This document shows positions 18,501 to 21,500 of a DNA stretch of 64,000 nt, piece by piece. The position numbers were made by a program. Positions within the stretch are counted from its first letter, which is position 1. Every line of letters begins with the position of its first letter. The stretch lies in assembly GCF_056746865.1 (NCBI RefSeq), contig NZ_CM163382.1. One strand, given 5' to 3'.

Positions 18501-21500
18501 TTGCCCAACCTGCGGATTTTGTTCCGTCTGGGCGGCTACAGCTGGCTCAGCATTGATCAGTGGTTGCGTTGCTGGCGTCGCCTGCGTCATGAAAGAGGGG
18601 AACGCACTCATCCCCATAGCCACTGCACAAATCCAGAATAGTTTTCTTTTCATCGCGTTATCATCATTGTTGAGCCAAAGCCTGATCCGATGGTTGTGCC
18701 GTTTCGCTCCGCTCCGGGCGGCGCGGAATAAACGATACAACCCAGGAAACCAGAGAAGTCAGCACACGGAATATGCCCTTCACCGAAGAAGGCGCAAACT
18801 CCGCCAGATGGCGGTAGCCACGGAAGCCGAGCTTCAGAATATCCAGCAGACTTTCCAGCGGCTTATCTTCCGGATAGCTGTCCTGCCAGAGCGCCCATGT
18901 ATCCGCACGGGCAAACGTACACTGCACAAAATCGATATGTTGCTGGGTGGTGAGCGGCATTAATTTCAGCCCAACTTCATTACCCATCACGCGCGCCACC
19001 TGGGTGGGGAAGACGTATTCCTGCTGACCGCGTTTAAGCAACAGATTCACTTTCTGCCCTTCCAGAATCTGCGCCTGACCGTTGATCTTGATCCCCAAAC
19101 CACCGTCGGAGAAATCCTGAACGGTACATGAGAAGAGGTGACCATCTTCGCGGGCAATTGCCGCGGGCATCGTCATCTCCACGCGGTGCGATCGGCGTAC
19201 CTGTTTGCTTTCTACCGATACCGCAACTGCGCCGCCAAGAACAATCAGGTTGTAGAATACCCACACCATACTGACGACCACGGTGAGCATCTCGGTTGGC
19301 GGGCCATAGAAGTAGCGCCAGATGCCTACCGCAACGCCCACCAGGTTGAGCAGAACAAGGAAGATGTAGGGCCGCGAGATCACCCAGTCGACGTACTCTT
19401 CTTCCACCAGTCCACCTTTGGCGGTGACGTTAAATTTGCCTTTGTGCGGGTTAATCAGCGCCACCAGCGTCGGTGGTGCGATATACCACGCCAGCACCGT
19501 TTCGTAGATTTCACTCCAGAAAGAGTGGCGATATTTGCCCTGGATCTTGGAGTTGGTCAGGCTGGCATGGATCATATGCGGCAGCACGAACAGGGCAATC
19601 ATCAACGCTGGCGCATAGATGATGTAGGCATGAAGCAGCAGGAACGCCAGCGGCGCAGTCAGGAAGATCAGCCGTGGAATGCCCGACAAGAAGTGGAACA
19701 TGGCGTTGACGTAACATAGCCGCTGAGCAAACTTCAGCCCTTTACCGGTGAGCGGGTTATCGAGACGAAAGATTTGCACCATCCCGCGCGCCCAGCGAAT
19801 ACGCTGACCGATATGCGCCGACAGACTTTCGGTCGCCAGCCCCGCCGCCTGCGGAATACGCATATATGCAGAGGTGTAGCCACGACGGTGCAAACGCAGA
19901 GAAGTATGCGCATCTTCGGTTACCGTTTCGACAGCAATGCCGCCAATCTCATCCAGCGGCTTACGGCGAATCACCGCACATGAACCGCAGAAGAAGGTGG
20001 CGTCCCACATATCGTTGCCATCCTGCACCAGACCATAGAACAGCGTGCCTTCGTTCGGTGTTTTACGAAAACGCCCCAGGTTGCGTTCAAACGGGTCCGG
20101 TGAGAAGAAGTGGTGCGGCGTCTGCATCATCGCCAGCTGTTTTTCTTTCAGGAACCAGCCCATGGTCATTTGCAGGAACGATCGCGTTGGTACGTGGTCG
20201 CAGTCGAAAATCGACACGAACTCGCCTTTGGCATATTTCAGCGCATTGTTGATGTTGCCCGCTTTCGCATGTTCATGAGTGGTACGGGCGATATATTTCA
20301 CCCCCACGTTTTGCGCAAACTGGCGAAACTCTTCCCTGCCGCCGTCATCAAGGATCCAGATGTTCAGCTTGTCTTTCGGCCAGTCGATACCCAGCGAGGC
20401 GTAAATCGTATTTTTCACCACGTTGAGATCTTCGTTGTAAGTCGGGACAAAGATATCCACCGACGGCCACAGCGACATATCTTTCGGCAAGGGCACCGGC
20501 TGACGATTCAGCGGCCATACTACCTGGAAGTAGCCGAGCACCAGCACAATCCACGCATAAGTTTCGGCAAACAACAGGATTAAGCCGCACAGCAGGCTGA
20601 CCGGATCGTCCCAGTTCAGCGTAGAGGTGTAGCGCCACCAGATATAACGGCAAGAAACGGTCAGCGACAGCACAATCAACATTAGCGCCGAGAAGCGCCC
20701 CGGCATCCGCCGTACGATCAGCGCTACACCCCACAGCAGCATCAGGAAGATAAACTGCGCCAGCGGGTTAAACGGCTGGGTAACGCAGATTAACGCCAGA
20801 ATCAGCGAGAAGGTGACGATGATACCGAGGATCAACCGCCGCGCCCCTGCGCTCAAATGGCCGAGTTCTTTTTTCTCATCGAGATGCTGTGTTTTATGGC
20901 TAACGCGCTCAGGCAGCTCGTTCATCCATTGATGGTAACGTCCACGAATATTTTGTAGACCTGAAAATGTCCGCCTGCGCGGTTTCGGCGTTTCTTTGCG
21001 CGATGTACCGATCAGTAACCAGCATGTTTGAATGAGATAACGGACCGGGTCCAGCGGACGCGGACGCGAGGCGTTGATATGCGGATACAGGTTTTATGTT
21101 CTGCGCGAATACGCTGCCAGCGCGGGTGCTCCAGCGGAATAAAAATCCAGGCCAGGATCAACCAAAAACAGCCGAGCGTCGCGCTGAAAGCCGACGCGCC
21201 GTGACGACGATAATCGCGATAACGCCCGATAAGCCGCGCGTTGACCGGCGGGATAAGCAACCACCGGGTCAGGATACTCATGATTTACTCCCGACTGGCG
21301 TTTTCAGCCCGGAATAGTTCAACAGGCACCAGTTAGCCAGCGTCAGTATCTCTTCAGCCGCCAGCGCATCACTGCGATATTCACCGACTGGTTGCTTAGC
21401 CGCCAGGCATTCAGCCATCGCTTCATCACGATGAATGAGCATCGGCAGTAATCGGCGCTGGCTTTGCAACCAAAGCTGGTAAATATCGTCCTGAACTTGA

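Follow-up and report, generated by a model that had tools for sequence, protein, structure and literature searches.

A one-base deletion in bcsA linked to a bcsC nonsense codon in a predicted cellulose-negative sub-lineage of Escherichia coli ST69

Known cellulose-loss genotypes and the Bcs machinery

Loss of cellulose production in invasive Enterobacteriaceae is recurrent and apparently adaptive. E. coli K-12, a lineage in wide use, is cellulose-negative through a single-nucleotide lesion, a premature stop at codon 6 of bcsQ. Lesions in the structural genes of the bcs locus have been surveyed in a screen of 100 genomes from each of 76 common sequence types (STs) (Nhu et al. 2024, Nat Commun 15:1441; PMC10881479). 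For ST69 (phylogroup D), the gene-level calls in Supplementary Data 3 of that study list "truncated.bcsA + truncated.bcsC" in 68 of the 100 genomes, and the study places these mutations at a defined branch point, a pattern that fits clonal expansion. In ST95, repair of bcsA restored cellulose, cellulose loss raised virulence in animal models, and bacteria with the restored bcsA were less virulent in neonatal-rat and mouse models of urinary tract infection (UTI) (PMC10881479).

The minimal components of the complex are BcsA, BcsB, and BcsC (PMC11379886). Enterobacterial BcsA starts with an N-terminal domain of ~140-149 residues, which has no counterpart in the Rhodobacter BcsA and serves to recruit the pEtN transferase BcsG, and BcsC consists of 19 TPRs followed by an outer-membrane beta-barrel (PMC11379886).

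Here we describe a bcs locus in which both bcsA and bcsC are disrupted, within a 64,000-nt stretch of contig NZ_CM163382.1 (hereafter, the window), and compare it with these genotypes.

The bcsA frame break and the state of the bcs locus

In the window, bcsA is encoded on the minus strand (21281..18664) and spans 2,618 nt, compared with 2,619 nt, or 872 codons, when intact. The missing base maps to a run of four A residues at codons 63/64 (A4; 21092..21095 on the minus strand, T4 on the plus strand), which represents a 1-nt deletion from an ancestral A5. The first-pass annotation had placed a 1-nt frameshift at this run, and direct reading of both strands bears this out: on the minus strand, nucleotides ~181-195 of the gene read GAA CAT AAA ACC TGT, preceded by cgc gca. 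In frame 0, starting from the ATG at 21281, native residues 1-63 are encoded, ending in ...RIRAEHK, and translation terminates at codon 90 (TGA), with a predicted truncated product of 89 aa (21012..21281, minus strand) that comprises the 63 native residues and 26 out-of-frame ones. The neighboring frame begins with NLYPHINASRPRP... and runs uninterrupted through 809 codons until the native stop codon at 18664. The description of codons 1-63 and 64-872 as open in adjacent frames thus stands, with one refinement: a TAA (caT AAa) directly before N64 closes the downstream frame on its 5' side, and the two frames are open together only at gene nucleotides 189-267 (~80 nt). Addition of one A to the run yields, as originally proposed, a continuous gene of 2,619 nt and 872 codons, the same as in strain 550.

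Full-length homology of the translated gene to E. coli BcsA, the UDP-forming cellulose synthase catalytic subunit with its GT2 and PilZ domains, was detected. The downstream frame can be matched position by position to residues 64-872 in solved structures of E. coli BcsA (7LBY, 9FMV, and 9B8V; E = 0), and all catalytic and c-di-GMP-binding motifs are retained in this frame, namely, DCD, TED, and QxxRW (FDCDH, TEDAH, and QRIRW, respectively) and the PilZ motifs RxxxR and DxSxxG (RRSHR and DFSDGG). The Rhodobacter BcsA can be aligned to the 809 residues of the downstream frame only from position 92 on, equivalent to BcsA residue 155, consistent with the absence of the N-terminal domain in that protein. 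The single continuous frame of a functional BcsA is broken at codon 64, and because this break is followed by the stop at codon 90, we classify the gene as a pseudogene of the BcsA family, as it is annotated by RefSeq in strain 118UI. The persistence of the catalytic motifs and of residues 64-872 in the downstream frame is expected for a recent inactivation.

The second lesion is found in bcsC (11746..15219, minus strand), where 398 codons are followed by a stop and the remainder of the gene. The nonsense codon, already noticed in the first pass, is a TAA at 14023..14025 (minus strand) in place of the AAA of the intact relative strain 550, that is, K399*, caused by an SNP at 14025. In 118UI, RefSeq labels bcsA as "frameshifted" and bcsC as "internal stop". 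Given the architecture described in PMC11379886, the truncated BcsC has lost roughly half of its TPR repeats together with the entire outer-membrane beta-barrel. The rest of the locus is intact, including bcsQ and bcsR upstream in the operon (21278..22230, minus strand), bcsZ and bcsB downstream of bcsA in the same operon (15201..18653, minus strand; identical in sequence to strain 550, whose annotation gives both as intact), and the divergent bcsEFG operon (22502..25937, plus strand). As the first-pass annotation stated, bcsQ is undamaged at codon 6, where it encodes Leu, and its product is 250 aa long. With A4 in bcsA and K399* in bcsC both present, the cellulose operon appears to be doubly inactivated, again in agreement with the initial view.

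We propose that replication slippage dropped one A from the A5 run at bcsA codons 63/64. Translation of BcsA now halts after 89 residues, within the enterobacteria-specific N-terminal domain and ahead of the catalytic core, and the AAA to TAA change in the same lineage cuts BcsC at residue 399, with the loss of the outer-membrane pore. With no part of the catalytic core in the 89-aa product and no pore in BcsC(1-398), the loss of secreted cellulose should be a double one, and in combination the two lesions are predicted to eliminate the secreted (phosphoethanolamine-)cellulose; a further effect of Rho-dependent polarity on bcsB, bcsZ, and bcsC is plausible. The window probably comes from the ST69 (phylogroup D) sub-lineage in which the double truncation has expanded clonally. 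We estimate at about 0.9 the probability that the window contains a genuine, vertically inherited loss-of-function allele of bcsA accompanied by the BcsC truncation, clonally expanded in an ST69 sub-lineage and predicted to be cellulose-negative.

Distribution of the alleles and competing explanations

In the comparison with other genomes, an 80-base query centered on the bcsA run was matched exactly against 5,426 complete E. coli genomes. The A5 allele, with one extra base, was found in 5,261 genomes (about 99% of the 5,315 matching ones), and the exact A4 80-mer in 54, which come from many laboratories, hosts, and countries. Given that A5 is present in 5,261 of the 5,426 genomes and the lesion is one exact difference, this is not a chance statistical pattern. 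The exact 80-mer with the bcsC TAA occurs in 52 complete genomes, all of which (52/52) also carry A4; conversely, 52 of the 54 A4 carriers have K399*. A search aimed at the order of the two lesions detected, among the complete genomes, no ST69 haplotype with just one of them. The exact 89-aa frameshift product is encoded on at least 1,000 public contigs (NCBI, ENA, JGI, and Logan assemblies) and is labelled by public sources as a fragment of the cellulose synthase catalytic subunit.

The window and strain 118UI are colinear over the full 64,000 bases and differ by two SNPs but by no indel (99.997% identity). The bcsA of 118UI differs from that of the window by one nucleotide and the intact bcsA of strain 550 by two. 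Strain 550, in which both bcsA and bcsC are annotated as intact, differs from the window over the 64 kb by five SNPs and one indel, and in a 24-kb stretch around the operon by only three changes, namely, 14025 (K399*), 20592 (V231L), and the missing base in the A run. As both genes are intact in this near-identical strain, the bcsA and bcsC lesions are recent. Two of the five SNPs, 20592 and 35745, are private to the window, and two of the four non-private differences are the bcs-inactivating lesions themselves. The change at 20592 (minus strand, GTG to CTG) lies inside the already broken bcsA, and the 80-mer containing it has no exact match in the 5,426 complete E. coli genomes; it would fit drift or relaxed constraint after the inactivation of bcsA, with the proviso that one SNP proves nothing.

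The other private SNP, 35745, is located inside a copy of IS1397, an IS3-family element (34744-36092) that lies between dppA and tRNA-Pro, is present in 118UI and strain 550 as well, and has a transposase annotated with a programmed frameshift. The sole other differences over the 64 kb between the 118UI-type haplotype and strain 550, at 4217 and 55260, affect a 194-aa hypothetical protein and xylB, one change in each, judged from the differing protein accessions. The 194-aa protein belongs to a set of five consecutive small ORFs (194, 100, 155, 84, and 141 aa) on the minus strand at 4059-6287, between kdgK and yhjJ, all annotated as "hypothetical protein" in 118UI. The GC content of this region is 34-42%, compared with 51-56% in the flanks, and the region was found in 200 of the 5,426 complete E. 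coli genomes; comparison with NCBIfam and PADLOC produced no match, and that with PHROGs one marginal match. The region resembles an islet of genes for hypothetical proteins gained by horizontal transfer.

Several explanations other than inherited inactivation of bcsA were considered. Homopolymer indels are a frequent type of error, and the first-pass annotation had allowed that the missing base might be a sequencing or assembly artifact, with the real bcsA intact; indeed, two of the A4 carriers, LSN03-016011/A and ET201, are singletons on unrelated backgrounds and could be such errors. Against this explanation, 52 further complete genomes of one lineage share A4, always linked to a bcsC nonsense SNP that is not in a homopolymer, the exact 89-aa product recurs across the public contigs, the window contains no other indel relative to 118UI, and, at 4-5 bases, the run is rather short to provoke systematic errors. 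Judging from these comparisons, A4 is a genuine inherited deletion, and a homopolymer error in this assembly is excluded, with only a nominal probability left to it. The 54 A4 genomes, the annotation of 118UI, and the contigs support instead the original alternative, a real loss of cellulose production that is independent of the bcsQ lesion of K-12. The two frames could also still yield full-length BcsA through a programmed -1 frameshift on the ribosome or through transcriptional slippage in the A run, but this is, in our assessment, equally close to impossible. The frames do overlap by ~80 nt, and tRNA-Lys slipping by -1 on AAA would restore precisely the K63-N64 junction, but this P-site slip, the only one to do so, would move AAA onto UAA, and a slippery-site scan of the zone where both frames are open found no X_XXY_YYZ heptamer or X_XXY tetramer, and hence no signal of programmed frameshifting, which the first-pass annotation had named as a finding that would refute its reading. 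The run of four A is far below the length required for transcriptional slippage, for which the known supporting runs are of ~8 or more bases. Nor is the two-frame arrangement conserved among homologs: with A5 in 5,261 of the 5,315 matching genomes, ~99% of E. coli encode bcsA in one frame, so that the layout is derived, and the independent truncation of bcsC also argues against a rescue of bcsA by frameshifting.

The frameshift could also have split the gene without destroying it, if translation restarted at M120, the first in-frame ATG, which opens a residual ORF of 753 codons extending to the native stop (18664..20925, minus strand). The product would be a BcsA without most of the N-terminal domain that polymerizes glucose and cannot recruit BcsG. 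In favor of this possibility, the ORF contains the whole catalytic core with all core motifs, the frameshift falls within the ~140-149-residue N-terminal domain that recruits BcsG and is lacking in the Rhodobacter BcsA (PMC11379886), and the Rhodobacter protein matches from BcsA residue 155 onward only. The Shine-Dalgarno sequence of M120, however, is weak (anti-SD duplex of -3.4 kcal/mol, compared with -6.9 kcal/mol at the native start), 87 nt separate the ATG from the premature stop upstream of it, a distance beyond the reach of tight translational coupling, and, with BcsC cut at residue 399, any polymer would be unable to cross the outer membrane, so that secreted cellulose would be lost all the same. 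We regard this scenario as quite improbable, even if some residual expression of an N-terminally shortened BcsA is conceivable. All internal restart sites in bcsA were scored as weak.

The two A4 carriers outside the main lineage, the ETEC human-challenge strain LSN03-016011/A (bcsA at 8853-11470 of L003) and the frog isolate ET201 (bcsA at 8853-11470 of L004), are not ST69-like. In both, bcsC is intact and the neighboring bcs genes are represented by different alleles; their bcsA genes differ from that of the window at 62 and 57 sites, respectively, and from each other at 36. They were considered as possible intermediates of the ST69 lineage and ruled out as such by the unrelated bcsA backgrounds and the intact bcsC. 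In these two strains, the nearest differences flanking the run are found 66 nt upstream and ~80-125 nt downstream, and given their proximity to the run, a second, independent loss of this base, or an assembly error in the two singletons, seems likelier than import by recombination. Should the frameshift in LSN03-016011/A be real, a challenge strain in wide use would probably be cellulose-negative. The protein cluster also contains variants of the 89-aa product on other backgrounds, e.g., one with M41 and ...VILFKHAGY on 17 contigs. This recurrence suggests that the run at codons 63/64, one of seven homopolymers of at least 5 bases in bcsA, could be a modest slippage hotspot.

Such recurrence, with the same -1 event on at least three bcsA backgrounds among the complete genomes, mutually 36-62 SNPs apart, and with further sequence variants of the 89-aa product in public data, raises the question of whether changes between A5 and A4 turn cellulose production on and off reversibly, in the manner of phase variation. 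Contingency repeats are typically much longer than A4/A5, and a long repeat tract with both states in one clone was not observed. All 52 genomes with bcsC K399* are A4, with no revertant among them, the linked bcsC nonsense codon makes reversion of bcsA useless, and the window has since acquired a private missense change in bcsA. A switch of this kind is accordingly a highly improbable interpretation. A broader version, in which the A5 run would be a preferred, recurrent, and possibly reversible target for turning cellulose off across many E. coli backgrounds and a BcsA starting at M120 would polymerize unmodified glucan, is a long shot; if it were true, the lesion would leave a rewired Bcs machine, not simply a destroyed one. 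Inherited inactivation of bcsA, compounded by the truncation of BcsC, thus remains the preferred reading.

The same two strains differ from the window in another locus, at 26024-26614, where the window has two tandem Ldr type-I toxin units that form a ~390-nt direct repeat with 95.7% identity. There are four such units in LSN03-016011/A and one in ET201, so that the copy number varies between strains.

The ST69 lineage and comparison with known cellulose-negative bacteria

None of the seven loci of the Achtman MLST scheme is known to map within the window, whose membership in ST69 is suggested indirectly, by the near-identity to 118UI and by the ST69 carrier EC6868. The latter strain, which has the A4 allele, has been published as ST69 (PMC10840416), and the best matches of the ST69 isolates of another study are 118UI, NMBU-W13E19, and SCU-313, all A4 carriers. 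The window combines the two lesions, A4 at 21092-21095 and TAA at 14023-14025, that together characterize the ST69 cellulose-negative sub-lineage. From the matching gene pair and ST, we infer that the sites are the same and that the window probably represents the published ST69 cellulose-loss genotype. In the supplementary data of PMC10881479, as far as they concern ST69, the truncations are given as gene-level calls, with no codon positions found. The literature search retrieved no paper with a cellulose assay of an ST69 strain carrying these alleles.

Because the lesions are annotated in RefSeq and reported at the gene level for ST69, the conclusion that bcsA is lost is correct but ordinary and already known, and the lesion in the window raises no new biological question. 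Prior work is extended only by the precise site of each lesion, by the linkage of both in all 52 carriers among the ST69-like complete genomes, by a nearly identical relative in which the two genes are intact, and by the reappearance of the deletion on other backgrounds. In practical terms, A4 at codons 63/64 and bcsC K399* are exact typing markers for the ST69 sub-lineage, and the double-truncation allele marks a strain as probably cellulose-negative. In annotation, the bcsA frameshift should be retained and never "corrected".

Among the known cellulose-negative bacteria, K-12 resembles the window in that both carry single-nucleotide lesions, but the lesion of K-12 is in bcsQ, which is intact in the window. 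The closest counterpart is the ST69 genotype of PMC10881479, in which the same two genes are truncated in the same lineage, that of the carrier EC6868; compared with the gene-level calls available there, the sites in the window (A5 to A4 at codons 63/64 and K399*) add detail but no new finding. The same gene pair, bcsA and bcsC, is truncated in 98% of ST1193 genomes and 97% of Shigella sonnei ST152 genomes (PMC10881479, Supplementary Data 3 and 4); there the truncations arose independently, in lineages unrelated to this one, and the likeness to the window holds at the level of the genes, at which those calls are made. In ST95 clade 8 (MS7163, S88), similarly, a bcsA frameshift is fixed in a successful ExPEC clade, but it is located at BcsA residue 186, in phylogroup B2, and mostly occurs without a bcsC lesion (PMC10881479). 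The cellulose phenotype has been demonstrated in ST95, whereas for the window it is predicted from the sequence. The window exemplifies a convergent process by which pathogenic E. coli, Shigella, and Salmonella have lost cellulose.
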